A DNA stretch of 58,025 nucleotides from a virus. Lineage: Duplodnaviria; Heunggongvirae; Uroviricota; Caudoviricetes. Positions 2,491 through 49,784 of the stretch are shown piece by piece. The notes beneath the pieces were generated by a model. The model was not told the origin of the DNA. It saw nothing but the letters and a program-made list of their open reading frames with translations, and made no database searches. Made by a program: the position numbers and the translations under genes. The stretch's first letter is position 1. Every line of letters starts with the position of its first letter. The DNA lies in IMG/VR virus record IMGVR_UViG_2859821903_000003, positions 1 through 58,025 of that record, one strand, 5' to 3'.

Positions 2491-4152
2491 TTACACCCCG
2501 CTAAATTCTTCCAGTTTCTGGCGGTGGCTGTCGCTTATATCAAAAGCAAAATCCTCATGCTCTGCCTGGAATGTACCAAACGCCATCAGCGCCGCCACGC
2601 TCGGGTCTATCTTGTTCGGTGATTTTTTCTTGTTCGGCTTGATATTGGCGTTCGCGTCACTCTGCATCACGACGTTACTCATCGACCAGGACAACACCGG
2701 ATCGCCACGATGCACAATCACCCTGCGGTTAACAAAAACTTCGAACGATTTCGCCGCCGGACTTAATCTGAGGTAGGTTTGCGGGAACGGCTCCACCTCA
2801 AAACCTGCCCCCTGTAATTGCGTTCTGAGATGCGTGGCGTTCCACGTATCAAAGCCCACCAGCCTGATATTAAATTTCTCCGCGTCCTGCATGATGTCAT
2901 CTCTGATCCGGTCGTAATCAATGCAGTCGCCAGGCGTTGTGCGTATCCAGCCTGCTTTAGCCCACTGACGATAGATGGCGCGGTTTTTATTGGCGGGGTT
3001 CTGTAGCTGGAACTCCGGCAGATAATGACGGGAAACCAGCATAATGGTTTTACCTACCGGAAAGGCATAGCACACGCTGGAAATATCGCTTGTGGATGAT
3101 AAATCCAGCCCCGCGTAACACTCCTAGCCGTGTAAATCTTCCTCCGTGAACGTTCCGGCACACTCAGCCCATGCGCCGTTACCCATCCACGGGGTAGTCC
3201 CCTGACACCAGATATTAAATCGCTTTGTCATCATCTCCACCCACTGCGACGGAATACCCCGCGCTTTCTGGATGGTTGAGGCCAGTTTTTCACGATCCAC
3301 GGAAACATCAATATTAGGGTTCGCCTTTATCCACATCGCCGGATCATCAACCTCGTTTTCGTCGTCCAGTTCGTAAATCAGTACAAAAATTGAATCGTTA
3401 ACCTCTTCGCCGTCCAGGATCTGGCAGCAATAATCATAGTGCTGCTTACAGGCTGAAACGACGTTGCTGCCTGATGTGGTAATGGCAAATAACAGCCCTT
3501 CGGGACGTGCGCCCATCCCCAGCTCAAGCGCGGAATAAACGCCGTTATCGGGGTGCAAGTGGTATTCGTCCACGATGGAAAGGCTGGGGTTTGTTCCCTC
3601 GATGGTTGCCGCTTTTGCTGCCAGCGGCTTTAACAGGCTGTTGCTTTTCGGGTGTATCACCTTATGCGCCTGAATATTCACCCGCCTGCGTAACGGTCGG
3701 GATAAAAGGCACATCTGACGCGCATCATCAAAGACGATCCGCGCCTGGTCACGGCTCACCGCTGCGGTGTAGATATCCTGCTGACCGTTCTCCATAATCA
3801 GAAACCAGTTAGCCAGAATCGCGGCGGTCGTTGATTTCGCATTTTTGCGCGGCACTTCGATAAAGGCGCTCGTATATTTGCGCCGTCCGGTGGCCTTAAC
3901 CTTAAAGCCGAGGATGCACGCAAAGGCGAACTGCTGCCACGGCTCCAGCTCAATGGGTCTGCCACGCATCGGCCCTTTTACGTGCGGGCACACCCTGGAA
4001 AAGGCAATAAACCGATCCACAACCTCACGATCGAACGTGTAAAGGGGGCTTTTAAGGTCTGAAAAGTACCGTTTAACGGCCTGTTTCAGCCGTTTACAGG
4101 CCGGAATTTTGCCCGTTTTTACGTCTTCTGCGTACTTATTCCAGGCGGTCAA
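2491..4152 (-). pseudogene. Terminase large subunit, interrupted by in-frame amber (TAG) at 3124-3126
   Basis: ORF 3124-4152 is the terminase ATPase-like N-terminal part and ORF 2491-3075 the nuclease-like C-terminal part; both are in the same frame, separated only by one TAG. Confidence 0.75.
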
Positions 4153-4781: not shown

Positions 4782-5222
4782 TCATTCATCAGCGTCATAC
4801 ATCCAGTTATTGCGGTTAGCGGCCCGTTCTTCCTCTTCACGAAATCCACCTGCGGCACGCTTACTTTTTGTTGCCGGATCAAGCCATTTCGTTTTCTGGT
4901 TATGGCACGCCTGACACAATGGTTGATGGTTCCATTCGGGCCAGAAGAGAACATCATCACCGCCATTAATCGGGATAATGTGATCCACCACCACGGCGGG
5001 CGTATATATCCCCTTCTCAAGGCATCGCACGCATAACGGGTTTTTACTCAGATACATGGCGCGGTATTTGTCCCACTGTCTGGAGTACCCACGCGCGCGG
5101 CGGTGTCCTCGTCTGGCATCCTCTGCACGCCATGCCGCCCGCCTGTGCTCCTCACACTTGCCGGACTTCACGCGCCTGTTACAGCCTGGTTCTGTGCATC
5201 GTCTTAATGGTTGCCACGGCAT
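4782..5222 (-). CDS. Phage-associated HNH endonuclease
   Basis: Motif DHIIPINGG...NHQPLCQACHNQKT; position next to the terminase genes as in cos-packaging phages. Confidence 0.75.
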   Translation of the reverse strand: MPWQPLRRCTEPGCNRRVKSGKCEEHRRAAWRAEDARRGHRRARGYSRQWDKYRAMYLSKNPLCVRCLEKGIYTPAVVVDHIIPINGGDDVLFWPEWNHQPLCQACHNQKTKWLDPATKSKRAAGGFREEEERAANRNNWMYDADE

Positions 5223-9822: not shown

Positions 9823-10128
9823 TCAGTGAAGCGATCCGGCGTTGTTCTTTTTCATCTCTTCCATCATTTTTTCAGTGAGCATTACGCACTGAAAACCCAT
9901 GTTTTTGATGTCCACGGGCTTCATGCCTTTATCAGTGGATATCACAGGAAGAATATCCTGATACACATCGCGGTCAGGGTAACTAAGCACACAAAGCGCC
10001 CATGATGCCACGGGTGAGGATCCTTCGTCTGTTTCAACCCACCAGCCTGGTGTAGCTGCGCTTATTTGCTGAATCGTGATCCGTCCGTTGTGCTTGTAAA
10101 GTTTTTCACCAAATTTTGGTTCGCTCAT
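9823..10128 (-). CDS. Hypothetical island protein (101 aa)
   Basis: ORF in the replication-proximal operon; no motif recognised. Confidence 0.35.
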   Translation of the reverse strand: MSEPKFGEKLYKHNGRITIQQISAATPGWWVETDEGSSPVASWALCVLSYPDRDVYQDILPVISTDKGMKPVDIKNMGFQCVMLTEKMMEEMKKNNAGSLH

Positions 10129-10406
10129 GATTCCAACTCTCCGGTTTTAACGTTGATTGTTGTTACCTGTTCCGCTTCGGCAATCTCCCGTTCTGTCAGC
10201 GTGGCAAAGTTTGCCGCCGCCGTGGTCATGAATGCGCTTATCAGGTCGGGATGTTCCTTCGCGTATCCTTCCCGCGTGTGGCGGTCTATCGTTCTGATTG
10301 CCACCTTTAAGGTGTGCTCAGTCATGTCTAACGCTTTATATTTTGGCTCTGTTCTGTCTCTGCGTTTTTGGGTCATTTCTCGCAACCTCTCACTTTTTCG
10401 CCTCAC
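10125..10406 (-). CDS. Hypothetical island protein (start uncertain, possibly the internal Met at 10325)
   Basis: ORF whose 5' portion overlaps the iteron array. Confidence 0.3.
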   Translation of the reverse strand: MRRKSERLREMTQKRRDRTEPKYKALDMTEHTLKVAIRTIDRHTREGYAKEHPDLISAFMTTAAANFATLTEREIAEAEQVTTINVKTGELES

Positions 10407-10578
10407 TTTTTCAAGCGTCTCACTTCGTCGCAGTTGGGATTTTCGGTTTTTCTATGTGTATGTTTCATAAGTATTTTTTTACCCCTCACTTTTGAGGATG
10501 TATACAGGTCGAAAAGTGAGGGGGAGCGGGCTAATTTTGGCCCTCTTTCTATCCCCTCGCTTTTGCTCCTCACTTTTA
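10379..10578. repeat. Iteron array, CTCACTTTT-type repeats (at least 6 copies, one inverted); candidate island origin of replication
   Basis: Copies at 10379, 10393, 10410, 10486, 10570, a CTCGCTTTT variant at 10553 and an inverted copy at 10511-10524, immediately 3' of the replication gene. Confidence 0.5.
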
Positions 10579-11976
10579 TAGCGGCGCTACATCATCCCCA
10601 TCGATACGAATAACCCCATCTTTTTCCAGCTTGTACAGCCAGCGCCGGAAGTTTTTCATTTCATACCCCAGCTTTTTCATGTCATCACGTAACATCTGGA
10701 TCGTGCACTTGTCGCCGTTCTGTGTGCGTGAACGGATGCACCCCCATAGCGCGGTATGGTTTTCCGTCTTGTTCCCTGCCTCCTCGATGCGCTCCAGTTC
10801 AACAGGAGGGCGCGGATCATCCACCACCACCAGCGACGTGATTAATTCACCGTCAGCGTCGGTAAAAAGCTCCACCACGCGTAAGTCATATGCGGCTTCT
10901 TTGAGTTCCTCCGCGTCCTTCATTTTGGTGCATGAGATAACCAGCGCTTCGCTTCCTGCGTCCTCCCTGCGTATCCGGTATTCAGCATCCAGCGAAGCAC
11001 GAAATGCACTGGAACCGCGCGCGCCTTTCGTCTCATCCTTGCCGGAATGGTGAACCACCAGCACCGTGGCCCCTGTGCGTCGTTTCAGTTCGTCACAACC
11101 ACGGATAAACGCCCCCATATCACGGGAATCATTTTCATCATTCCCACCAAAGCAACGCGCCAGCGTATCCAGAATAATCATGCGTACAGGTTTACCCGTT
11201 TCCCGCTCCACCTGACGGGCAGCGATAACCATTTCATCAACATCAAGCGGGGCAGCCGGAAAGATGGGGCGGTTTACCAGATACAGATTTTTCACCTGCT
11301 CATCGTGCACAACCTCCCAGGCTTTTACACGACGCGGAACACCTATACCGCCTTCACCAACCACATAGAGAACCGCACCATGTGCAACCCTGCGGCCTCC
11401 CCACTGGCGACCAGTGGCAACATGGCACGCCCACGATCCGGCAAGGAATGATTTATAGGACCCGCTAGCCCCGTATATGCTGCATAGCGATACCGCCGGA
11501 ATAATCCCCTTAACCACGTAATCCAGTTGCGTGTCGTATCCGGTAGATCCAACGCTCATCGGTAGCGTGGTTTTTCGCTGGTGGTTTTTTTCTTCCGCCG
11601 GCTCTTTCCCGCGCACCCGTTCCAGGTATTCGCGCCAGTTCTCCCGCATATGGCTGTGCATCCCTTCGGGGTAATAATTCGCATCAGTTACACCCGCCGC
11701 CGCCAGCTTGTGCGCAATGGCATTAATATTTGATGGCCTGATGTGGCCTGCCTTGTACAGCCGGACACAATAGCGCCCCTCGTCGATGATTCTCAGGTCT
11801 GCCAGTTCATCCAGTTGATCATCAGCCAGCACAACGGGAGGCACATTATCGCCAGCCAGTCGCCCGTCCTGTTCCTGCCACTGTTTCGCATGTGCCCAGG
11901 CATCACTACCCGCAAAAATAATGGCTTCGGTCATCTTGTCGTAAGGCTGTTTTTTTAAGTTCGGTGCGCTTTTCAT
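10576..11976 (-). CDS. Replication protein, RecA-like/AAA helicase family
   Basis: 466 aa; Walker A GASGSYKS, Walker B-like LVVHHSGKDE; adjacent to iterons. Confidence 0.65.
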   Translation of the reverse strand: MKSAPNLKKQPYDKMTEAIIFAGSDAWAHAKQWQEQDGRLAGDNVPPVVLADDQLDELADLRIIDEGRYCVRLYKAGHIRPSNINAIAHKLAAAGVTDANYYPEGMHSHMRENWREYLERVRGKEPAEEKNHQRKTTLPMSVGSTGYDTQLDYVVKGIIPAVSLCSIYGASGSYKSFLAGSWACHVATGRQWGGRRVAHGAVLYVVGEGGIGVPRRVKAWEVVHDEQVKNLYLVNRPIFPAAPLDVDEMVIAARQVERETGKPVRMIILDTLARCFGGNDENDSRDMGAFIRGCDELKRRTGATVLVVHHSGKDETKGARGSSAFRASLDAEYRIRREDAGSEALVISCTKMKDAEELKEAAYDLRVVELFTDADGELITSLVVVDDPRPPVELERIEEAGNKTENHTALWGCIRSRTQNGDKCTIQMLRDDMKKLGYEMKNFRRWLYKLEKDGVIRIDGDDVAPL

Positions 11977-12272
11977 TTCTTGCCCCTGAATCCGTTAATC
12001 ATGGTTTTCAGCTTCTGGATGTTTGCCCGTGCCCTGGCGTTGCTGGTGGGCACGTTATGCGGCGCGGTCTGTACCAGAGAAAAATCACGCCGGAACTGAT
12101 AAACAGGCATCACGCAATCATATTCGTAACCTTCACGGCGGTAGGTTACGCGCCGTTCTTCCACGCCCTTAATCATTACCGTGCCGCCGTAATGGTCGCG
12201 GTAAATATCACCGCGCGTAAATTTAGGGTGAGTGTTGCCACTGGCAGTTAAGCCAGAATATTTAAGTTTCAT
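11973..12272 (-). CDS. Hypothetical island protein (99 aa)
   Basis: ORF coupled to the replication gene start. Confidence 0.35.
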   Translation of the reverse strand: MKLKYSGLTASGNTHPKFTRGDIYRDHYGGTVMIKGVEERRVTYRREGYEYDCVMPVYQFRRDFSLVQTAPHNVPTSNARARANIQKLKTMINGFRGKK

Positions 12273-12523: not shown

Positions 12524-12725
12524 CCGTCGTTTTTCTTAAAATAACCTCTGTCACGAAATCAGCATAATCGGCGGCGATATTCAGTACATCAAGCCCGTTG
12601 ATTTATATTCTCTCGTGGAAAGTAAGAAAAAAGCCGCTCTAATAAGTTCTGGCATTGACGAAAGCGCATCAGCCGCACCATCAGGAACGCCGGAAAATTC
12701 CTGTTTCAGGGAATTAAAACGATCA

Positions 12726-12989
12726 TCACGCATAACCCCCCCCATTTTCACAATCGGCAACAAGAATATTTTTAGCGTCATTCAGTGACCGCGTTGCGAT
12801 GTATCGGATACATTCCAGGGCGAACTGTGTCCGGTCTTTCTGTTCTTCTCCCTGCGCAAGCTCTGCCGTGCATTCAATATCAATAAGCGCGTGCATCAGC
12901 GTAGTGAGCGCGGCGGCTGCTGCGTCCGGTGTGGTTTTATTGTGCATAGGTTTCTCCCTGGCGGATTTTTGCAGCGAATACAGCAACAC
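12726..12989 (-). CDS. Hypothetical island protein
   Basis: ORF in the leftward early operon; start uncertain. Confidence 0.25.
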   Translation of the reverse strand: MLLYSLQKSAREKPMHNKTTPDAAAAALTTLMHALIDIECTAELAQGEEQKDRTQFALECIRYIATRSLNDAKNILVADCENGGGYA

Positions 12990-13140
12990 AACCGGACGGG
13001 CAACGGCTACGCGCTTCGCGTTCCGTCCAGGCGGTTACGTGGATGATTTGAGATTCTCCGGCACTCAGGGCCAGAAAACGCCACACAAAGGCCGTTTGTG
13101 TGTGTACAAGGTGTGGTATATGATTTACGGCAACCATAAC
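12937..13140 (-). CDS. Hypothetical first gene of leftward operon (start taken as MVAVNH)
   Basis: The longer ORF would overlap the operator palindromes, so the internal start is preferred. Confidence 0.25.
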   Translation of the reverse strand, partial: VMVAVNHIPHLVHTQTAFVWRFLALSAGESQIIHVTAWTEREARSRCPSGCVAVFAAKIRQGETYAQ

Positions 13141-13227
13141 GGCTCCTAGTTTACGTTGTTGGTTAGAAGCCCTGCGAGTGGTAATGACACTTGCGGGGCT
13201 TTGCTTTTTTAAGTGCTCTTGTGTTAA

Positions 13228-13272
13228 GGTGGCCACCTAACAATGGAAAGGCTAATTCAATAGGTGGCCACT
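13228..13272. promoter_or_regulatory. Twin palindromic operators AGGTGGCCAC (13228-13237 and 13263-13272) in a divergent control region
   Basis: Two copies of a 10-bp palindrome with 35 bp centre-to-centre spacing, between the divergent leftward operon and the RHH gene. Confidence 0.5.
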
Positions 13273-13331
13273 TGTCAACAATCAAACGCGATAAAAGCCC
13301 TAAAGGGGACGGGCAATCCCCACAATTCAGA

Positions 13332-13463
13332 ATGCGAATTTCTCCAGAGCTAAAAGAGCAATTCGACAAAGAAGCACAGAGCGACGGCATAAGCCTAGCC
13401 AACTGGCTTAAAGAGTTGGGGCGCACTGAACTAAAGCGGCGCGGCATAGAACCCAAAGGATAA
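13332..13463 (+). CDS. Small ribbon-helix-helix (Arc/CopG-like) DNA-binding protein, candidate island repressor
   Basis: 43 aa from MRISPELKEQFDKEAQSDGISLANWLKELGR; RHH-like pattern; divergent from the replication operon. Confidence 0.4.
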   Translation: MRISPELKEQFDKEAQSDGISLANWLKELGRTELKRRGIEPKG

Positions 13464-13505
13464 AAACTATCAGCGCCGTGGTGTGAGGTATTACGGCGCA
13501 TTGCT

Positions 13506-13694
13506 ATGCAGGACAACACAATGACCGATAAAGAATTGACCAAAACATTATCACCGGCACGGAAAAGACGGCGCAGAAAGATAGAGCATGAATCAGAAAG
13601 ATTCGCGCCATGTGCTTTTGCCCTTGAGCAATTCCTTAAAGAGTATAGGGAAAAGCGCTCATTGCAGGTATGGCAACGAACTGAACCAGACTGA
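13506..13694 (+). CDS. Hypothetical small basic protein
   Basis: 62 aa ORF downstream of the RHH gene on the same strand; terminator follows. Confidence 0.25.
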   Translation: MQDNTMTDKELTKTLSPARKRRRRKIEHESERFAPCAFALEQFLKEYREKRSLQVWQRTEPD

Positions 13695-13789
13695 TTGCAT
13701 TGCCCACCAGCCTGATAGCGGCTATCATCCCCGTGCTTATGTTTGGGATCACATACACATAAGGCGCAGCGGGTTATCTGTTCAGAAAG

Positions 13790-13817
13790 GCGGCTCCATT
13801 TCGGGGCCGCTTTTTTT
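13790..13817 (+). terminator. Rho-independent terminator of the rightward RHH transcript
   Basis: GCGGC stem / 11-nt loop / GCCGC followed by T7. Confidence 0.5.
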
Positions 13818-13963
13818 ATGCCTGAAAAACCCCAATTTTGTGGTTTTCCAGTCTCACCAGGGCGAACAAATCCCCGCCCACGTTCTGGCGTATATTCAAT
13901 CTTCATGGTTATAGCTCTGTGTTCAGATGATTGATGTGTGGCGGCTGCGTGCCGCCAGCGTGA

Positions 13964-14152
13964 TTAATGAACTGCCTTGCAGCTATCCTTCCAGGCCAGA
14001 ACCTCGGATAAAGACCAGCCAACGGAACGACCGCCAAGTTTACGACGTGATGGGAATTGTCCGGCCTTTTCCAGGCGGTAGCGACACGTACGGCTAAGGC
14101 CGGTTAGTTTTTCGCATTCTTTTTCACGTATAAACCGATCAGTGCTTAACAC
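13964..14152 (-). CDS. alpA: AlpA-family phage transcriptional regulator / excisionase-like protein
   Basis: 62 aa; LSRTCRYRLEKAGQFPSRRKLGGRSVGWSLSEVLAW matches the AlpA pattern; next to int. Confidence 0.75.
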   Translation of the reverse strand: MLSTDRFIREKECEKLTGLSRTCRYRLEKAGQFPSRRKLGGRSVGWSLSEVLAWKDSCKAVH

Positions 14153-14424
14153 TATTGCCCCCTTTCGTTTCTTAAAGAGTCATCAGGTGTCTTATTGTGT
14201 CGTATTGTTCCCGCTAGAGTGATGAATGGCAAATACTGAGGATGTATGATTTACAGAAAATGAAAAAGTAAGAATAAAATCTTTTAAATTCATGTTAATA
14301 CAAAGGCATAAAATATTGTTCCATGCCTTTTTTCTCGCTCTTTAAAGAGTGATTCGCTAGTGTATAAAAAACCAGTAACACATTAAAAATCAGCTACTTA
14401 TAAATCCGTACGCTTTTTCGCCTC

Positions 14425-14478
14425 TTGTTCGTAGTTGTTCCACATTGTTGCTCATTGTTGCACGTTGTATCTGTTCGC
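14425..14478 (+). promoter_or_regulatory. Array of five or more 10-bp-phased TTGTTC/TTGTTG hexamers between int and alpA
   Basis: TTGTTCGTAGTTGTTCCACATTGTTGCTCATTGTTGCACGTTGTAT in AT-rich intergenic DNA upstream of alpA. Confidence 0.45.
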
Positions 14479-14516
14479 ATATCCAGTATGCGCATACTGA
14501 AAAAACACGAAAAAAA

Positions 14517-15746
14517 TTATTTTCTTCTGGCTACTGGTAGCGTGGTTACGTTTTCATGTGTTCCCGCCAGTATCCCTAACCGCTCCGTCCACATATCCAG
14601 CGCATTGCGTTTCGCATCCAGATAACGGGAATGATTATAAACTCGCTGCATTCCTGGCATCTGGTGGCCTGTAAGCTGCTCCACGACATGCGGATCAACG
14701 CCTAAATCGTTCAGCATGGTTGTAAAGGTGCGCCGGATGTCATGCAGTGACCAGTGAGGGTGTTTAAGCCTCCTGTGCGCTAATCTGCCGTACTGCGACA
14801 CGCTGGTTTCCTGTTTCACTTCCCCCAGCAATAAGCCCGTGTGCCTGTTCTGCTCCACCAGCTGCGTGACGAACGGCATTATCGCTTCCGGTATGGGCCG
14901 GAATATGGCTACCTTCGTTTTGCTGTGCTCCTTCGGAACAGTCCAGAGCATTTCGGTAAAATCCCACTCGCCGATCTCCGATAACCTAAGTTCGACCGTC
15001 CGGCATCCGAACACAATCAGGAGGCGGATTAGCGCGATGTAGTAGGGGGAGAATATTTTTTTGTCCAGTGCCTGCAATAATTCGCCAAGTTCTTTGTTGC
15101 TTAAGACACGCTCGCTTATATCCGGTTTTTTCCCAACGTCCGCCACACTCATATCATCAAGAACGTTGCTGATTGCATAGCGCCGCTTCCGGCAGAACTT
15201 AAGCGCCTGCTTGCATGTCTGTAGCAGGAACCCGGCGGAAACAGGGGCTTGCTTTGCCACCCGATCAAAACAGGCCAGCCAGTGCCGTAGCTCGCATTTA
15301 TCCAGCGGCATAGGGCCAATGTGCTGTATTACGTGATTATTTAGCCGCTTTTTCAGTGGGTCATAATCCACACGGTTTTCCTTTGCGTACGACTCAAGCC
15401 AGTAGGTGAGCGCATCACCAACCGTTACCGGCTTTAACGCTTCCTGTACGGTGTAATTCATCTCATGACGTGGATTTTTCCCCTCAGCCAGCCATGCGCG
15501 ACACTGGGCGGCTTTTTCCCTGGCTGATTTCAGACTCAGATCAGGATAATTTCCCAGCTTAATGCGTTCCGGTGGTGCCCCCCTTCCCGTTCCGGCCCTG
15601 TAAGTGAAATACCAGGTCAATTTCCCTGATGTTAAATATTTCACGCTCAAGTTTCCGCCATCACTATAAAACGTGTTTTTCTCCGCTGGCTTACCATGAA
15701 GTTTCCTTAGCAAGGTATCGCTCAGTTTGTTCATTGCTCTGCTCAC
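14517..15746 (-). CDS. int: Tyrosine integrase, P4-type
   Basis: 409 aa; N-terminal arm-binding-like domain (KLSDTLLRKL...SDGGNLSVKY), catalytic HDIRRTF and LLGHQ...RVYNHSRY. Confidence 0.85.
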   Translation of the reverse strand: MSRAMNKLSDTLLRKLHGKPAEKNTFYSDGGNLSVKYLTSGKLTWYFTYRAGTGRGAPPERIKLGNYPDLSLKSAREKAAQCRAWLAEGKNPRHEMNYTVQEALKPVTVGDALTYWLESYAKENRVDYDPLKKRLNNHVIQHIGPMPLDKCELRHWLACFDRVAKQAPVSAGFLLQTCKQALKFCRKRRYAISNVLDDMSVADVGKKPDISERVLSNKELGELLQALDKKIFSPYYIALIRLLIVFGCRTVELRLSEIGEWDFTEMLWTVPKEHSKTKVAIFRPIPEAIMPFVTQLVEQNRHTGLLLGEVKQETSVSQYGRLAHRRLKHPHWSLHDIRRTFTTMLNDLGVDPHVVEQLTGHQMPGMQRVYNHSRYLDAKRNALDMWTERLGILAGTHENVTTLPVARRK

Positions 15747-15995
15747 GTTTTACCCCCTCTTTACGAAAAAGTGACTACACCAGTGACTACACCGATCGTT
15801 GCACAAAGGGCTACAACGTGAAACAAGCTGGAACAAGGAAAATCACAAATCTGTTGATAATCAAAAACATAATGCACAACCTGAAACATTATGAAACGGC
15901 AAAAAACACTAATTGATAAAATATGCCCATACTTCACGCATTACGTTAAGCATCCGTTATAATCGGTTGCAGATACCAGCCTGTGGATGCTTAAC

Positions 15996-17117
15996 ATGGA
16001 ATACCAACTCACTCTTAACTGGCCCGATTTTCTTGAACGTCACTGGCAGAAACGCCCGGTGGTGTTAAAACGCGGCTTTAATAATTTTATTGACCCGATC
16101 TCTCCAGACGAGTTGGCGGGTCTGGCGATGGAAAGCGAAGTTGACAGTCGACTGGTCAGTCACCAGGATGGCAAATGGCAGGTCAGCCACGGCCCGTTCG
16201 AAAGCTACGATCATCTCGGTGAAACCAACTGGTCATTACTGGTACAGGCAGTGAACCACTGGCATGAGCCGACCGCCGCGCTGATGCGACCGTTCCGTGA
16301 ACTACCGGACTGGCGTATTGATGATCTGATGATTTCTTTTTCTGTACCTGGCGGCGGCGTCGGCCCGCATCTCGATCAGTACGACGTGTTTATCATTCAG
16401 GGTACCGGACGTCGTCGCTGGCGAGTGGGCGAAAAGCTGCAAATGAAACAGCACTGCCCACATCCGGATCTGTTACAGGTCGATCCGTTCGAAGCCATCA
16501 TCGATGAAGAGCTGGAGCCTGGTGATATTCTTTATATTCCGCCAGGATTCCCGCATGAAGGCTACGCGCTGGAAAATGCGATGAACTATTCCGTGGGCTT
16601 TCGCGCGCCAAATACGCGGGAACTGATTAGTGGATTTGCCGATTATGTGCTGCAACGTGAACTGGGCGGCAACTACTACAGCGATCCTGATGTTCCACCT
16701 CGCGCTCATCCTGCGGATGTTCTGCCTCAAGAGATGGATAAACTGCGTGAGATGATGCTCGAATTGATCAACCAGCCGGAACACTTTAAGCAATGGTTTG
16801 GCGAGTTTATATCCCAGTCACGTCATGAACTGGATATCGCGCCGCCGGAACCGCCTTATCAGCCAGATGAAATCTACGATGCGCTGAAACAAGGTGATGT
16901 GCTGGTGCGCCTGGGTGGTCTGCGCGTATTGCGCATTGGCGACGACGTGTATGCCAATGGTGAGAAGATCGATTCCCCGCACCGTCCGGCACTGGATGCA
17001 CTCGCCAGCAACATTGCGCTGACTGCGGAGAATTTTGGCGATGCGCTGGAAGATCCGTCATTCCTCGCGATGCTCGAGGCGCTGGTCAATAGCGGGTATT
17101 GGTTCTTCGAAGGGTAA
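15996..17117 (+). CDS. roxA: Ribosomal protein uL16 arginine hydroxylase RoxA (YcfD)
   Basis: Translation MEYQLTLNWPDFLERHWQKRPVVLKRGF... matches E. coli YcfD from memory; start taken at the second ATG. Confidence 0.9.
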   Translation: MEYQLTLNWPDFLERHWQKRPVVLKRGFNNFIDPISPDELAGLAMESEVDSRLVSHQDGKWQVSHGPFESYDHLGETNWSLLVQAVNHWHEPTAALMRPFRELPDWRIDDLMISFSVPGGGVGPHLDQYDVFIIQGTGRRRWRVGEKLQMKQHCPHPDLLQVDPFEAIIDEELEPGDILYIPPGFPHEGYALENAMNYSVGFRAPNTRELISGFADYVLQRELGGNYYSDPDVPPRAHPADVLPQEMDKLREMMLELINQPEHFKQWFGEFISQSRHELDIAPPEPPYQPDEIYDALKQGDVLVRLGGLRVLRIGDDVYANGEKIDSPHRPALDALASNIALTAENFGDALEDPSFLAMLEALVNSGYWFFEG

Positions 17118-17165
17118 GTTTGGATTTAAGCCGGATGCGGCATCACATGCCGCATCCCTTTTCGC

Positions 17166-18392
17166 TTACTTCCGTTGCGCCGTTAACTCGGCAATACGGA
17201 CAATCACCTGCACCGCTTTTTCCATACCTTCCAGAGTCACAAACTCATGCTTACCATGATAGTTGTAACCGCCAGTGAACAAGTTCGGGCACGGTAATCC
17301 CATAAACGACAACTGCGCGCCGTCGGTACCGCCGCGGATCGGTTTCAGTTCCGGTTCAATATCGCAGTCACGCATCGCCTGCTGGGCGATATCGAGAATA
17401 TGCGGATGCTCAACCACTTTCTCGCGCATATTGTAGTAACTGTCTTCAATCACCAGTTCAATGTAGCAATCAGGATGTAACCCTTTGCCCACTTTTTTGG
17501 CGATCTCCATCATTTTACGTTTACGCGCTTCAAACTGTTTACGGTCGAAATCACGGATGATGTAGTGCATATCGGCCCGTTCAACGGTGCCTTTCATGCC
17601 CGCCAGGTGATAGAAACCTTCATAGCCTTCTGTCATTTCCGGGCTTTCATCCGCCGGAACTTCCGCATGAATACGTGCCGCCAGCGACAGCGCATTTACC
17701 ATCACTCCTTTCGCCGTGCCCGGATGAACATTGTTACCGACAATTTTGATATTGACCGATGCGGCGTTGAAGTTTTCAAACTCCAGTTCGCCTACGCCAC
17801 CACCGTCAACAGTGTAAGCCCAGCGGGCATCGAAGGCATCAACATCAAAATGTTTCGCCCCTTTGCCCACTTCTTCATCCGGGGTAAAGGCGACGCGAAT
17901 ATCACCATGCGGAATGTTTTTCTGTTGCAATACCGCCAGCGCGGTCATGATTTCTGCAATACCTGCTTTGTCATCGGCACCTAACAAGGTTTTACCATCG
18001 GTGGTAATCAACGTCTGACCCAGTAGCTGATGCAGCACCGGGAACATAACCGGTGATAAAACTTCATCGCCGATACCCAGCGCAATATCGCCACCGCGAT
18101 AGTTTTCAACAATTTGCGGATTAACATTTTTGCCGCTGCAATCCGGTGAGGTATCCACATGAGAAATAAAGCCAATCGCCGGGATATCGCCAGGGACGTT
18201 AGCCGGTAACGTCGCCATCAAAGTGCCCTTCTCACTTAAGGTCACATTGATAAGCCCCATTTCTTCGAGCTGCTCTTTCAGCAGATGCAATAACTTCCAT
18301 TGGCCTTCCGTGCTGGGAACCTGTCTCACCCCTGCTTTTGATTGGGTATCCAGAGACACGTAGTTCAAAAATCGCTCAAGTAGTTTATCCAT
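17166..18392 (-). CDS. pepT: Peptidase T (tripeptide aminopeptidase)
   Basis: Translation from [19 protein letters not shown]... matches E. coli PepT from memory; internal Met preferred over ORF-track start. Confidence 0.9.
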
Positions 18393-18641
18393 GTAGTCAC
18401 CCTCACTTTTTGTGACAACATTATTAAGAAGCAAGAAAAGACAAATATTGCGTCAGGTCACTTTTACCCCTGCAAGCGGGAATATTTATCAGCATTACCT
18501 TAATGAATATAAAGCTAAGCCAGTAATTCACAACAAAGATTGGCGATTCAAGCGGTTTGCCGTAGAATTACCGCCCTCATTAAGAGTCACCAAGGTGGTT
18601 AACCACAAACCCCGCATCGGTAAGCCATCCGTTGCGTTTAC

Positions 18642-20856: not shown

Positions 20857-21438
20857 TTACTCTGCAGGTGAAGTCGGCCACTCAATATCAGGTGCAGTTG
20901 ATGTATCAACACGGTTCAGCAACACCCGATACTTTTTCCAGGCTTCCAGCAATGAGGTTTCTTCCTCCGTTGCAATTTCCAGATCTGCAGCATCCTGAAG
21001 CGGCGCAATATGCTCACTGGCTACCTGCATCAGGTTGTTTTTTGTTTCTTCCGCCTCCCGGATCCGGAACAGTTTTTCTGCTTCCGTATCCTTCACCCAG
21101 GCTGTGCCGTTCCACTTCTGAAACTCCCCTTCCGGCGATAACCAGGTAACATTTTCCGGTAACGGACCGAGTTCAGAAATAAATAACGCGTCGCCGGAAG
21201 CCACGTCATAAACCGTTTTACCCCGATGGTCTTCAAAGAGATGCCACGATGACTCATCACTGTTGAAAACAGCCACGAAGCCTGCCGGAATATCTAACGG
21301 TGCAATATCGGTACTGTTTGCAGGCAGACCTGTATGAGGCGGAATATATGCGTCACCTTCACCAATAAATTCATTAGTTCCGGCCAGCAGATTATAAATT
21401 TTTATGGTCCGTGGTTGTTCACTCATTCTGAATGCCAT
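20857..21438 (-). CDS. tfa: Tail fiber assembly protein
   Basis: 193 aa ORF immediately after the side tail fiber gene, conserved position. Confidence 0.75.
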
Positions 21439-46521: not shown

Positions 46522-46881
46522 GAAAATAGCACAGAGTGTAGCATCAGAGCAGGGCTATCGGGAATATATGTCTAAATCTGGTAATATCTGGTTTTGACGC
46601 AAAGCGGACAACCACGCTGGCTCTACCCTGCGCCATGAAAATGTCAATTCACATCTGAACTAATGCTCTTTAATCTAGTAACGTCTAAAATACCTAACAT
46701 TTCCTTGATAAAATGCCAGTACACGCTGCATAGCTTCGCTCTTCCGGCACTCGCGACAGATTATGTTCATACGCCTGTCGTAGCGGCGTATTTCTCCGTC
46801 GGGTAATGTCCAGATAAGGCCCGGATCAACCACAACAGGTTTCTTTACCTTTGCCCTTGAGAGTTTTTTGCGAGCATTTTG

Positions 46882-47115
46882 CTAGTCCTTACGCGCCTGT
46901 TCAGACGGGAATAACCCGTAACCAGAGTCGTATACATCGCCACTGGCAACCAGCTCTCTGGCAAGAACGCTCATCAGATATCTTGTCGCACCTGTCTTGG
47001 CTTCCAGTTGCCGTAACGTCTCGCGCCCACTCCGGCGTACTAGCTCAACAACCTGCCCTTTAATTTTTTCCCGCTCTTCTTGTGTAAATACTTTTGCCAT
47101 AAGCGCCTCCGGCAA
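46882..47115 (-). CDS. Hypothetical small protein (77 aa)
   Basis: ORF coupled to the upstream 256 aa gene. Confidence 0.3.
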   Translation of the reverse strand: MPEALMAKVFTQEEREKIKGQVVELVRRSGRETLRQLEAKTGATRYLMSVLARELVASGDVYDSGYGLFPSEQARKD

Positions 47116-47886
47116 TCACTTTTCCGATACAACACGGCGGGAAGAATCAGTAATCTGTCGAACAATATCCCGGTGCTTGTTCAGCTCCCGCAGCGCGGCG
47201 CAGACTCGCTCCCACTTCTGAACATCACTTTTCGCCCTGCGCAGCGCCAGGTTTGCCCTGCGCAGGGACGGAAAAATCAGCTCATCTGCTTGCGTTTCGG
47301 TAAACGATGGCAACGACTGCACAATGTCCGCCACAGTTTCTGTTTTAATTTCTTCCTGTGTTGCGGCTTCCCGGCCTGGTAACGCAGCACCTGCTGGCTG
47401 AGGAAAGGCCTTACCATCACTTTCCGTTACCAGCGCGGCTTTCGGCTCTGCTGGTAAATTATCGCCCGGCATGCAGTAACGAAATTTACCGTTCTGATTA
47501 ACGCGTGCCAGCCGCCCCGTTGCGGTTACCACCGCCAGCGTGGAAGCAACCTTGCGAGTACTGACACCGAACTTACCCGCCAGTTCCTCACACGTTTTAG
47601 CCCCATCCTGACCGATAAACTCAATCATCATGTCTGCGGTAACTTTTTGTTCGACCTCCCCGGTCAGCATATCCTGTGCTTCAGATTTTACTGGCCGCTC
47701 TTCGGTTACCCGGGATTCACCTTCGCCAGCCAGAAACCAGGTGTGACCAGTTTTATCAACGACGCCATTTCTTTTGAGTTCCCACAGCTCGTTGACAGCC
47801 TCTTCACGACTGATTCCAAGGCGAGCTGCCACCACATGTGAAGAGGCTTTTTTCAGTGCTTTCAGTGCGTCAGATACGGTTTCCAT
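47116..47886 (-). CDS. Hypothetical phage protein with N-terminal HTH-like segment (256 aa)
   Basis: N-terminal LKKASSHVVAARLGISREEAVNELWELKR; lies downstream of the DnaC-like gene. Confidence 0.35.
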   Translation of the reverse strand: METVSDALKALKKASSHVVAARLGISREEAVNELWELKRNGVVDKTGHTWFLAGEGESRVTEERPVKSEAQDMLTGEVEQKVTADMMIEFIGQDGAKTCEELAGKFGVSTRKVASTLAVVTATGRLARVNQNGKFRYCMPGDNLPAEPKAALVTESDGKAFPQPAGAALPGREAATQEEIKTETVADIVQSLPSFTETQADELIFPSLRRANLALRRAKSDVQKWERVCAALRELNKHRDIVRQITDSSRRVVSEK

Positions 47887-47907
47887 TAAAATTTCCTCCG
47901 GACAAAA

Positions 47908-48498
47908 TTACTTCACAACCCTCATATTGCTGACATTTGGACGCCAGCTATCCCAGTTAAACGTCACCCATCGACCACCGTTCATGGTCATGCGGTCCAT
48001 AATCCTCTCACCAAGAAGCGTACTCATTGCGGCATGATTCAGGTTTGTTAACATCCCGACACTGCACAGTGATGCTGTCCGGCGATCAATTATCTGGTGC
48101 AATACCACCTGCTCGTTTTTCGTCTCCCGCTGAACGCCTATTTCATCCAGGACCAGCAAATCAACCCCGCAAAGCTCCTGTAAAAATTTTTCCCCGGATT
48201 TGCCGTTGTCGTAGCTGTCATGCAACACGCTCATGACGTCAGACACGGTGACGATAATCACGCTGCGCCCCTTCACCATCAGCCGGTTGCCCATCGCCGC
48301 TGCAAGGTGATTTTTCCCGGTGCCGGTTTTACCGCTGAACACAAAATTCGTGCACCCGGTCATCAGTTCGTCAGCTATGGATTTGGCCTGGCTCAGCGCG
48401 TATTTTTGCCCGTCGTTCTGCACCTGATAATTTGCAAACGAGCATTTGCTGTGCAGAGGCTGGATGCCCGAACGATTCAGGATTTTTTCCACCCGCAA
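47908..48498 (-). pseudogene. DnaC-like replication protein, N-terminally truncated next to IS629
   Basis: 196 aa aligning with the C-terminal ~200 residues of DnaC (Walker A GKTGTGKNHLAAA, LLVLDEIG); about 50 N-terminal residues missing. Confidence 0.75.
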
Positions 48499-48570
48499 CT
48501 GGCGATTCTGGCGGTTTGAACCGCCCCGGGAATCCTGGAGACTAAACTTCCTGAGAAAGAGGTAAACAGG

Positions 48571-48897
48571 ATGACTAAAAATACTCGTTTTTCCCCCGAA
48601 GTCCGTCAGAGGGCGATTCGTATGGTTCTGGAAAGTCAGGGCGAATATGACTCACAGTGGGCGGCAATTTGTTCCATTGCCCCAAAGATTGGCTGTACAC
48701 CGGAGACTCTGCGTGTCTGGGTACGCCAGCATGAGCGGGATACCGGAGGCGGTGATGGAGGGCTCACCACCGCTGAACGTCAGCGTCTGAAAGAGCTGGA
48801 GCGTGAAAATCGTGAACTGCGCCGCAGTAACGATATCCTTCGCCAGGCTTCCGCTTATTTTGCGAAGGCGGAGTTCGACCGCCTCTGGAAAAAATGA
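48571..48897 (+). CDS. IS629 OrfA
   Basis: 108 aa [31 protein letters not shown]…. Confidence 0.9.
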
Positions 48898-49784
48898 TGC
48901 CACTGCTGGATAAGCTGCGTGAGCAGTACGGGGTCGGACCGCTATGCAGCGAACTGCATATTGCCCCGTCAACGTATTACCACTGTCAGCAACAGCGACA
49001 TCATCCGGATAAACGCAGTGCCCGTGCGCAGCGCGATGACTGGCTGAAGAAAGAGATACTGCGCGTATACGATGGGAATCATCAGGTATACGGTGTGCGT
49101 AAAGTCTGGCGTCAGTTGTTACGGGAAGGTATCAGAGTGGCCAGATGCACTGTGGCACGTCTCATGGCGGTTATGGGACTTGCCGGTGTTCTCCGGGGTA
49201 AAAAGGTCCGTACGACCATCAGCCGGACAGCCGTTGCCGCAGGCGACCGCGTAAACCGTCAGTTCGTGGCAGAACGACCTGACCAGCTGTGGGTGGCTGA
49301 TTTTACTTACGTCAGCACATGGCAGGGCTTCGTCTATGTGGCGTTTATCATTGATGTGTTTGCCGGATACATTGTGGGGTGGCGGGTCTCATCGTCCATG
49401 GAGACGACATTCGTGCTGGATGCACTGGAGCAGGCGTTATGGGCCCGTCGACCGTCCGGCACGGTCCATCACAGTGATAAAGGTTCTCAGTATGTATCGC
49501 TGGCCTACACACAGCGGCTTAAGGAAGCCGGATTACTGGCATCAACAGGAAGTACAGGCGACTCGTATGACAACGCGATGGCGGAGAGCATCAATGGTCT
49601 TTACAAAGCGGAGGTAATACACCGTAAGAGCTGGAAAAACCGTGCAGAAGTGGAACTGGCCACACTCACGTGGGTGGACTGGTATAACAATCGACGATTG
49701 CTGGAAAGGCTGGGCCATACTCCTCCGGCAGAAGCAGAAAAAGCTTATTATGCTTCCATCGGAAACGATGATCTGGCAGCCTGA
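48894..49784 (+). CDS. IS629 OrfB transposase (DDE)
   Basis: 296 aa ORF overlapping orfA; IS3-family arrangement. Confidence 0.9.

Follow-up and report, generated by a model that had tools for sequence, protein, structure and literature searches.

We describe a putative repressor/operator cassette in a viral DNA stretch of 58,025 nucleotides (IMG/VR record IMGVR_UViG_2859821903_000003, positions 1 to 58,025; hereafter the window), which carries an island of ~14-15 kb between phoQ (1-1461) and roxA/pepT (15987-18434). According to its sequence, this island is a capsid-forming phage-inducible chromosomal island (PICI) of Escherichia coli at the phoQ/roxA site, resembling EcCIEDL933. Within it, two matched palindromes lie between a leftward operon, in which an icd-like gene precedes those for replication and the capsid, and a rightward gene encoding a small ribbon-helix-helix (RHH) protein. 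Comparison of related loci strongly suggests that this protein binds both palindromes, and it appears probable, if less certain, that the Arc-like repressor/operator cassette as a whole represses the leftward operon together with an antisense RNA. The class of mechanism is already known; the satellite context is new.

The palindromes and the adjacent ribbon-helix-helix gene

The first-pass annotation of the window had noted two copies of a 10-bp palindrome, 35 bp apart, at 13228-13272. The repeat is real and non-random, and the distance holds when measured from start to start. The copies, however, occupy 13227-13236 and 13262-13271, one base further to the left, and the 10-mer AGGTGGCCAC, which occurs only at these two positions in the window, is not self-palindromic; the symmetric units are the 12-mers listed in Table 1. 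Elsewhere in the island no further copy of the site was found. When the window was simulated with a first-order Markov model, only 3 of 300 runs produced a perfect 12-bp palindrome accompanied within 60 bp by another copy that matched it at 11 or more of 12 positions. The window holds two such pairs, the one at 13227/13262 and an unrelated one at 47235/47256 (47235-47267), composed of CCCTGCGCAGCG at 47235 and CCCTGCGCAGGG at 47256.

The same annotation had assigned to the palindromes a gene of 43 amino acids. This open reading frame (ORF), starting at ATG 13332, represents the C-terminal two thirds of a gene of 63 amino acids that starts at TTG 13272. The start was assessed in related loci, comprising six diverged E. 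coli loci and 80 from other genomes; the counts given below refer to 85 loci, from Enterobacterales and one Advenella assembly, and a Pasteurella element was examined separately. The ORF is intact in all 85 loci, and the position of TTG 13272 is occupied by ATG in most of them (ATG 71, TTG 12, CTG 1, GTG 1). Most database homologues, from Providencia, Erwinia, Xenorhabdus, Morganella, Proteus, Dickeya, Pantoea, Edwardsiella, Sodalis, Pectobacterium and other genera, have a length of 63-64 amino acids and align over their full length, including a conserved N-terminus MSTIKRDKSPKG-G-SP, and Met21, the start proposed before, is replaced by Ile or Val in most relatives. Moreover, codons 2-20 show a third-position excess equal to that of the rest of the gene, which is lacking in the noncoding spacer between the palindromes, and an AGG within the proximal palindrome, 7 nucleotides before the start codon, can act as Shine-Dalgarno (SD) sequence. 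With the start at TTG 13272, the second palindrome consequently overlaps the SD sequence and the first two bases of the start codon, instead of lying upstream of the gene. The start codon also varies with the class of the palindromes: islands with AGGTG..CACC operators use TTG, as in the window, or CTG in a Pantoea locus (L013, position 3001), and most other classes use ATG. It seems that the operator half-site CAC(C/T)T constrains the start codon.

In E. coli O157:H7 and other genomes, the NCBI pipeline PGAP annotates an antisense 'hypothetical protein' of 221-247 amino acids over the RHH gene and the downstream orf62, which conceals the cassette in the O157:H7 annotation. The corresponding ORF extends over 13163-13906 on the minus strand of the window (247 amino acids), 13193-13936 in an O157:H7 strain (L089) and 14264-14929 in strain MS 21-1 (L001). 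A test based on third codon positions cannot separate the two genes because the third positions coincide in both frames; conservation of the absence of stop codons was therefore used. The 247-aa frame contains stops in 42 of the 85 loci, and searches of Pfam and PHROG gave no family match for it. Since it is interrupted and lacks a family match, this ORF is probably spurious and hides real genes, and it stands over the RHH gene in the RefSeq annotation of many E. coli genomes.

The previous assignment to the RHH proteins was borne out. The family profile retrieved P22 Arc from the PDB with E=0.0021, followed by Mnt (0.38), and PHROG yielded a match to 'Arc-like repressor' (E=3e-4), while a Pfam search gave no match of the 63-aa protein to the Arc family. 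The AlphaFold (AF2) model (pLDDT 82) comprises an extended N-terminus and helices at residues 25-37 and 42-56, the arrangement of solved RHH proteins. The seven best Foldseek matches of this model are all Arc (probability 0.96-1.00, TM-score to the target up to 0.88), and those that follow are mostly other RHH proteins (NikA, AmrZ, CopG and RHH antitoxins). By these comparisons, the closest relative of the protein is P22 Arc. In the alignment, P17-Q18-F19-R20-M21-R22 falls onto Arc P8-Q9-F10-N11-L12-R13, preceded by a basic N-terminal arm of 16 residues that is conserved in the family. Gln9, Asn11 and Arg13 are the base-contacting side chains of Arc in the Arc-operator structure (1PAR).

Two matched palindromes of 10-12 bp at a distance of 31-35 bp, the proximal one abutting the start codon, are present in 76 of the 85 loci, and thus a symmetric site lies next to the gene of its own putative regulator, as is typical of RHH proteins. 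The sites share GGT...ACC and differ in their centres, and the class of the centre follows the predicted beta-strand of the protein: QF[RK]MRI occurs with AGGTGRYCACCT, PFHMRI with AGGTGTACACCT, TFQIRI with GGTACGTACC, MFNVRI or LFNVRL with GGTATAGACC, IFSVRL with GGTCCATAC, AFQIRM with AGGTRTGTACCT and PYQMRL with TGGTAATTACCA. When residue 20 is R, K or H, base 5 of the half-site is G in 59 of 60 half-sites, and when it is Q, this base is A in 136 of 153. Likewise, residue 18 corresponds to base 6, Q occurring with a purine (45/45), T with C (126/138) and P, M or L with T. The covarying residues 18 and 20 are those aligned with Arc Gln9 and Asn11. Arg22 is invariant or nearly so in the family, and GGT is nearly invariant in the operator. 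The two copies always change in concert, and the 21 bp between them drift freely. Moreover, the PYQMRL class retains the same type of operator, GGTA(AT/TA)TACC, in L007 from E. coli and L088 from Pasteurella, although the surrounding DNA is otherwise very different. The latter is a 15-kb element of Pasteurella multocida deposited as a phage (Pmp8, OR544139), whose module at 4860-5183 consists of sRNA-like hairpins, the sites GGTAATTACC and GGTATATACC and a PYQMRL-class RHH gene, flanked by an alpA-like gene and an icd-like/primase operon. The pairing of protein and palindromes proposed before is thereby strengthened: with both copies covarying with the residues aligned to the base contacts of Arc, it is very probable that they are the operators of the RHH protein.

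A natural exchange between E. coli strains points in the same direction. Up to position 13167 and again from ~13442, strain 2015C-4944 (L007) shows 100% identity to the window and to strain MS 21-1 (L001), whereas the interior shows only ~45% identity, with L007 carrying TGGTAATTACCA twice and the PYQMRL beta-strand. The integrase accession is the same in L001 and L007, and their helix-turn-helix (HTH) regulators are nearly identical. As their palindromes differ nevertheless, these follow the RHH protein and not AlpA or the integrase; AlpA, integrase or origin sites were ruled out as the identity of the palindromes by this swap.

Table 1. Features of the cassette and its surroundings (positions in the window)
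Feature	Position	Strand	Details
Arc-like RHH gene	13272..13463	+	63 aa, TTG start; MSTIKRDKSPKGDGQSPQFRMRISPELKEQFDKEAQSDGISLANWLKELGRTELKRRGIEPKG
Distal operator (putative)	13227..13238		AGGTGGCCACCT, perfect palindrome, 12/12 self-complementary
Proximal operator (putative)	13262..13273		AGGTGGCCACTT, 11/12 identical to the distal copy
Predicted leftward promoter P_L	13249..13278	-	-35 TTGACA 13278-13273, 18-bp spacer, -10 TAGCCT 13254-13249, transcription start ~13242
Predicted rightward promoter P_R	13201..13230	+	-35 TTGCTT 13201-13206, TG 13222-13223, TAAGGT 13225-13230, transcription start ~13237
Predicted ~80-nt antisense RNA	13131..13210	+	own -10 TATGAT at 13119-13124
icd-like gene, first of the leftward operon	12937..13137	-	NCBIfam phage_ICD_like E=1e-17; PHROG matches; PGAP annotation in relatives
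Exchangeable immunity cassette	13168..13441		terminator hairpin, both predicted promoters, both operators, RHH codons 1-57
orf62, variable cargo gene	13506..13694	+	phrog_21027 E=1.6e-15; co-oriented with the RHH gene
Intrinsic terminator of the RHH-orf62 unit	13784..13817	+	fold -25.5 kcal/mol, z -4.3, stem then U7
alpA	13964..14152	-	Pfam PF05930 (Phage_AlpA HTH) E=5e-17; transcribed toward the RHH cassette
Tyrosine integrase	14517..15746	-	right end of the island, beside roxA/pepT
RepA-type (AAA_25) replicative helicase	10576..11976	-	leftward operon; Pfam AAA_25 E=2e-43; phrog_2850

Predicted promoters and antisense RNA

The RHH gene had been described as divergent from the leftward operon. 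This is correct for the genes, but the predicted promoters do not stand back to back: they are oriented face to face and overlap (Table 1). The -35 element of the leftward promoter P_L (TGTCAA on the plus strand) is conserved in 82 of the 85 loci. It coincides with the Met-Ser codons at the beginning of the RHH gene, and Ser2 is encoded by TCA in 82 of 82 loci, whereas other conserved serines have mixed codons, indicating a constraint on the TTGACA hexamer at the level of the DNA. The spacer measures 18 bp in 58 loci, a -10 element TAnnnT is present in 61, and a promoter scan calls the homologous leftward site at 10/12 in three relatives (L004, L007 and L062). On the opposite strand, the extended -10 element TGnTAnnGT of the rightward promoter P_R, located directly to the left of the distal operator and ending inside it, is conserved among the 76 loci with paired sites (T 72, G 65, T 65, A 68, T 71), and the scan calls a homologous rightward promoter, TTGATT-16-TACAAT, in L007. 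P_L and P_R are predicted to start within a few bases of each other, with one operator over each promoter: the proximal palindrome sits in the 18-bp spacer of P_L, and the distal palindrome overlaps the -10 hexamer predicted for P_R and occupies about +5 to +16 of the transcript predicted from P_L. Taken together, these conserved elements suggest two opposed promoters, P_L serving the icd-like/replication operon and P_R the RHH gene.

A second layer of control, absent from the first-pass annotation, is predicted between the start of the icd-like gene and the distal operator, where a small RNA antisense to the ribosome binding site of the icd-like gene would be produced. From its 5'-end, this RNA comprises hairpin 1, whose loop CUCC could pair with the SD sequence of the icd-like gene, a conserved single-stranded segment GUUGGUUAG and a strong hairpin 2 at 13166-13202, which together with its U-run was called as a terminator on the plus strand of the window. 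A -10 element TAnnnT is found at a fixed offset in 49 of 62 loci. The fold of the plus-strand RNA reaches -35.5 kcal/mol (z -5.3), compared with -21.5 kcal/mol (z -2.3) for the minus strand, and in 60 of 60 loci the plus-strand form of hairpin 2 is the more stable one (G-U pairs, 122 versus 23). Compensatory changes were observed in 14 of 21 pairs, with 91.9% of the cells paired versus 38-50% in slid controls, and none of 500 shuffles reached the observed values. RNAalifold yielded a structure for 20 length-matched sequences; a MAFFT alignment of 50 sequences, in which hairpin 2 was misaligned, gave none. Searches of Rfam assigned the region to no known RNA family, and C4 and isrK were absent both at the gathering score in the window and at E<=10 in 12700-14300. 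As a canonical U-tail is present in ~40% of the loci, the antisense RNA may elsewhere read on into the RHH gene. In addition, a terminator-like hairpin followed by GCGTTTTCTG (13102-13082, minus strand) lies ~35 nucleotides within the icd-like ORF. Its T-run encodes a conserved W-R-F motif, which renders a significance as attenuator doubtful.

Proposed mechanism and rival explanations

Judged solely from the geometry of operators and promoters, the RHH protein most likely functions to repress the leftward operon. At each 12-bp site, an RHH dimer would insert a two-stranded beta-sheet (residues ~17-23, PQFRMRI) into the major groove, with the conserved Arg22 reading the conserved GGT/ACC and residues 20 and 18 reading the variable centre. 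Binding to the proximal site, in the spacer of P_L, would shut off the operon for the icd-like, replication and packaging functions. Binding to the distal site, which lies just downstream of the leftward start, would cover the extended -10 element and the start of P_R, and would in this way combine autoregulation with reinforced repression. As P_L and P_R face each other and overlap, we propose that RNA polymerase at one promoter excludes its binding at the other. Leftward transcripts that escape the block would be caught by the constitutive ~80-nt antisense RNA, pairing with the leader, the SD sequence and the start codon of the icd-like gene. Finally, helper-induced AlpA could override the block, either because transcription from the alpA promoter reads through the convergent cassette or by activation at the leftward promoter.

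Several observations weigh against this mechanism or parts of it. A clear distal site is lacking, or the spacing differs, in ~9 of the 85 loci, and a distance of 35 bp corresponds to ~3.3 helical turns, so that the two sites do not lie on one face of the helix. In the window, P_L was not called by the promoter scan, owing to its weak -10 element TAGCCT, which matches the consensus at only 3 of 6 positions and follows an 18-bp spacer. The Pfam matches of the protein stay below the curated cut-offs (HicB 17.7 bits, cut-off 21; RHH_5 12.4 bits, cut-off 26), and the AF2 monomer contains no beta-strand, which is expected only in the dimer. Furthermore, operator and gene are adjacent, and some covariation is hence to be expected from linkage alone. 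As far as the aligned loci tell, however, the covariation exceeds linkage, considering the concerted change of the copies around a freely drifting spacer, the location of the changes on predicted contact residues and the recurrence of the same class in Pasteurella. A last objection concerns AlpA, the helper-induced activator, which is essential for EcCICFT073 as well as EcCIEDL933 and whose over-expression alone induces EcCICFT073 (PMC6092414; 10.1101/2022.09.08.507074). Any repression by the RHH protein must therefore be bypassable. The earlier view of the cassette as the master switch of the island accordingly stands as a hypothesis that is to be reconciled with AlpA.

Among the rival explanations, one assumes that the RHH protein merely autoregulates its own rightward unit, that is, itself and its cargo, in the manner of a moron or an orphan antitoxin and without control of the replication operon. 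The location of the distal site over the predicted rightward -10 element and of the proximal site over the SD sequence and start of the RHH gene agrees with this idea, as do the cargo genes that follow the RHH gene in many loci and the fact that the leftward promoter is a prediction and weak in the window. However, the proximal site is positioned exactly in the spacer of a leftward promoter with a consensus TTGACA hexamer that is held at the DNA level and that was called in three relatives, and the cassette always abuts the icd-like/replication operon; we thus regard restriction to autoregulation as unlikely. The palindromes could also act as RNA, the two copies pairing into a long hairpin in a read-through transcript that hides the SD sequence and start of the RHH gene without any recognition by a protein. 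The arms 13229-13239 and 13261-13271 are indeed 100% complementary with 21 nucleotides between them, and the N and S classes have non-palindromic copies that are mutually inverted. Yet complementarity follows automatically whenever a palindrome is present twice, and in the AGGTGRYCACC class the centres are direct as well as inverted (direct in L003, L008-L010, L012, L013 and L084), which breaks the stem. Pairing of RNA would moreover leave the covariation with the beta-strand residues unexplained, and the predicted transcription starts fall within or between the copies, which leaves this explanation a very slim chance.

That the sites belong to another factor, be it AlpA, the integrase or excisionase with its arm sites, an iteron-binding or a host protein, with the RHH gene as an unrelated neighbour, might be argued from the repeats bound by AlpA-type proteins and integrases near island ends and from the repeats in PICI origins (PMC6092414). 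The natural exchange between L001 and L007 contradicts it, as does the class of the palindromes, which tracks the RHH beta-strand across families; besides, the PICI origin maps downstream of the primase gene (PMC10111431, PMC6092414). We hold such an assignment to be scarcely credible. The NCBI name 'HicB family antitoxin' for relatives, the sub-threshold Pfam match to HicB (E=0.0035) and the RHH antitoxins among the fold matches could suggest the antitoxin of a type II toxin-antitoxin system, with the palindromes as its operator. The 63-aa protein, however, corresponds to the RHH part only, the HicB match spanning positions 23-49 of the 51 of the profile; no partner is conserved, the downstream gene being absent in ~30 loci and unrelated in others, and orf62 showed no match to a toxin family in Pfam and NCBIfam. 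This possibility is hardly tenable, and a toxin-antitoxin pair was rejected for want of a HicB N-terminal domain, an adjacent hicA gene and a conserved partner. With regard to chance, repeats of 10 bp spaced by no more than 50 bp are in themselves common enough in 58 kb, about two being expected by our own estimate. The simulations speak otherwise, and the decisive evidence is that 76 of the 85 related loci, across genera, keep matched sites at the same place, which refutes a random origin almost beyond doubt.

The reading of the cassette as an Arc-like repressor of the leftward operon can be extended. Tentatively, and with somewhat more doubt than confidence, we propose that it represents the maintenance repressor, and also the immunity determinant, that has been missing in Gram-negative PICIs and capsid-forming PICIs. 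Arc-like proteins of at least seven operator specificities, which islands exchange as a unit, may then form a family that silences the replication/packaging operon together with the antisense RNA, while helper-induced AlpA might induce by override, for example if transcription passes the convergent repressor gene through read-through or antitermination. On this proposal, the RHH gene was overlooked in EcCIEDL933 because the annotation places the spurious 247-aa ORF on the opposite strand. No repressor has been identified for Gram-negative islands of this type (PMC6092414), PMC10111431 makes no mention of an RHH protein or its operators, and a full-text literature search combining ribbon-helix-helix with PICI returned nothing relevant; the cassette therefore appears to be undescribed. 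Located between alpA and the replication operon, it is a testable candidate for the silence and gated induction of these islands, including those of the EcCIEDL933 type, and it could supply the repressor that had seemed to be missing from Gram-negative satellites.

The island and comparison with known systems

The island contains the genes that characterize a capsid-forming PICI within ~15 kb, namely int, alpA, a replication gene and those for capsid, protease, portal, connectors, HNH, TerS and TerL, and no tail genes were found among the island genes. From right to left, the minus strand encodes integrase, alpA, icd-like, orf73, orf81, DUF4222, RepA helicase, SSB and PerC, followed by the capsid block with major capsid, protease, portal, head closure, adaptor, HNH, TerS and TerL. 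An island of the same gene order occupies the same phoQ/roxA site in E. coli O157:H7, and the O157:H7 strain at this locus (L089) was used as the comparison for the type of EcCIEDL933, the prototype of capsid-forming PICIs (10.1101/2022.09.08.507074). Of 5426 complete E. coli genomes, 1379 contain the 850-bp region around the palindromes. The island has a mosaic replication module: at one and the same chromosomal site, the AAA_25 RepA helicase of the window contrasts with a DUF927 primase (9935-12067) in L089, and further relatives carry Toprim/Zn-ribbon or D5-type primases. A Pfam survey of the left flanks detected primase/helicase domains in 24-25 of 65 loci, the remaining loci being truncated or having the domain more than 3 kb away. 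The terL gene (2491-4152, minus strand) contains an in-frame stop at 3124-3126; tblastn gave one single-frame match with 97.8% identity to the intact 553-aa TerL of O157:H7 strain 3384. Owing to this stop, the present copy of the island may be defective in packaging. Outside the island, matches at the Rfam gathering score comprise IS009, three ALIL pseudoknots (IS3-type frameshift sites), STnc100, which adjoins a tRNA Arg-Arg-Met cluster, and the sok antitoxin RNA (20897-21095, 34196-48968, 37374-37890 and 43030-43205), pointing to prophage- and IS-rich DNA downstream.

The position downstream of the RHH gene (13464-13820 in the window) behaves, as far as its gene content indicates, as a cargo slot expressed together with the repressor. 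It harbours orf62 in the window and, at the equivalent positions (L002-L087), a SWIM zinc-finger protein or proteins of 128, 176, 267, 299, 331 or 663 amino acids, and it is vacant in ~30 loci. The terminator at its end separates the RHH-orf62 unit from the convergent alpA gene; terminator-like Rfam matches were sub-threshold. The right flanks of relatives encode defence-like proteins, for example a TIR-like sequence.

When compared with known systems, the cassette shares with HicB a weak similarity of the RHH part, the source of the NCBI name, and differs from it by the absence of the HicB N-terminal domain, of a HicA partner and of any conserved neighbour. The Stl/Rpr proteins are, to our knowledge, larger and not known as RHH proteins, and no homology of the RHH protein to them was found. 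They are the master repressors governing Gram-positive PICIs; likewise, the RHH gene is located where the integration module meets the replication module, is transcribed in the direction opposite to the latter and is a candidate for maintaining quiescence (PMC6092414). In contrast to the Stl/Rpr genes, which are co-directional with int, the RHH gene is opposed to int and alpA, and Stl is induced by binding of a helper protein, whereas the known trigger here is the helper-induced AlpA. A repressor of the Stl type was rejected in view of the RHH fold and the opposed gene.

The predicted RNA layer on the leader of an operon starting with an icd-like gene resembles the CI RNA of P4 and the C4 RNA of P1, and immunity RNAs of the CI/C4 type have been reported in some Gram-negative PICIs (PMC10111431). 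CI and C4, however, lie on the strand of their operon, whereas the RNA described here would be made from the opposite strand with its own predicted promoter and terminator. An RNA of this type was rejected because of the opposite strand and the absence of a match to Rfam C4 (RF01695) or isrK.

A parallel is also provided by the dual control of replication operons on plasmids. In pMV158, a transcriptional repressor, the RHH protein CopG, and the countertranscript RNAII jointly limit the replication genes, as CopB and CopA do in R1. CopG is among the fold matches of our protein, and a dual control of a replication operon by an RHH repressor and an RNA is likewise predicted here. The two differ in that copG itself heads the operon that its product represses, whereas the present gene is opposed to the operon presumably regulated, and in that one is located on a plasmid and the other on an integrated phage satellite.

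In the immI region of phage P22, the promoters are opposed and overlap, and Arc binds its single 21-bp operator as a tetramer. This region comprises the RHH repressors Arc and Mnt together with the sar antisense RNA (PMC2629481). The island protein is closest to Arc in sequence and fold and shares with it the P-Q-F-x-x-R motif of the beta-strand; in both cases a small RHH repressor would regulate its own transcription unit through an operator in or over promoter elements, and a small antisense RNA would cover the ribosome binding site of a regulated gene, the promoters and the RNA of the island being predictions. Unlike immI, the island has one RHH gene instead of two, two 12-bp palindromes 35 bp apart instead of the single Arc operator, and a basic N-terminal arm of the RHH family. 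Moreover, the operon presumed to be regulated starts with the icd-like gene and carries satellite replication and capsid genes and not an antirepressor, no family of the Ant type being found among the leftward ORFs scanned against Pfam and PHROG.

By analogy, the best reading of the cassette is an immunity-type repressor/operator unit with an antisense RNA, similar to P22 immI or to CopG/RNAII of pMV158, conserved and swapped between islands across many bacteria. Its matched protein and operator classes (R/K/H with G, Q with A, T with C) provide a natural series for the study of DNA recognition by beta-sheets, and they predict 'heteroimmune' types of islands.

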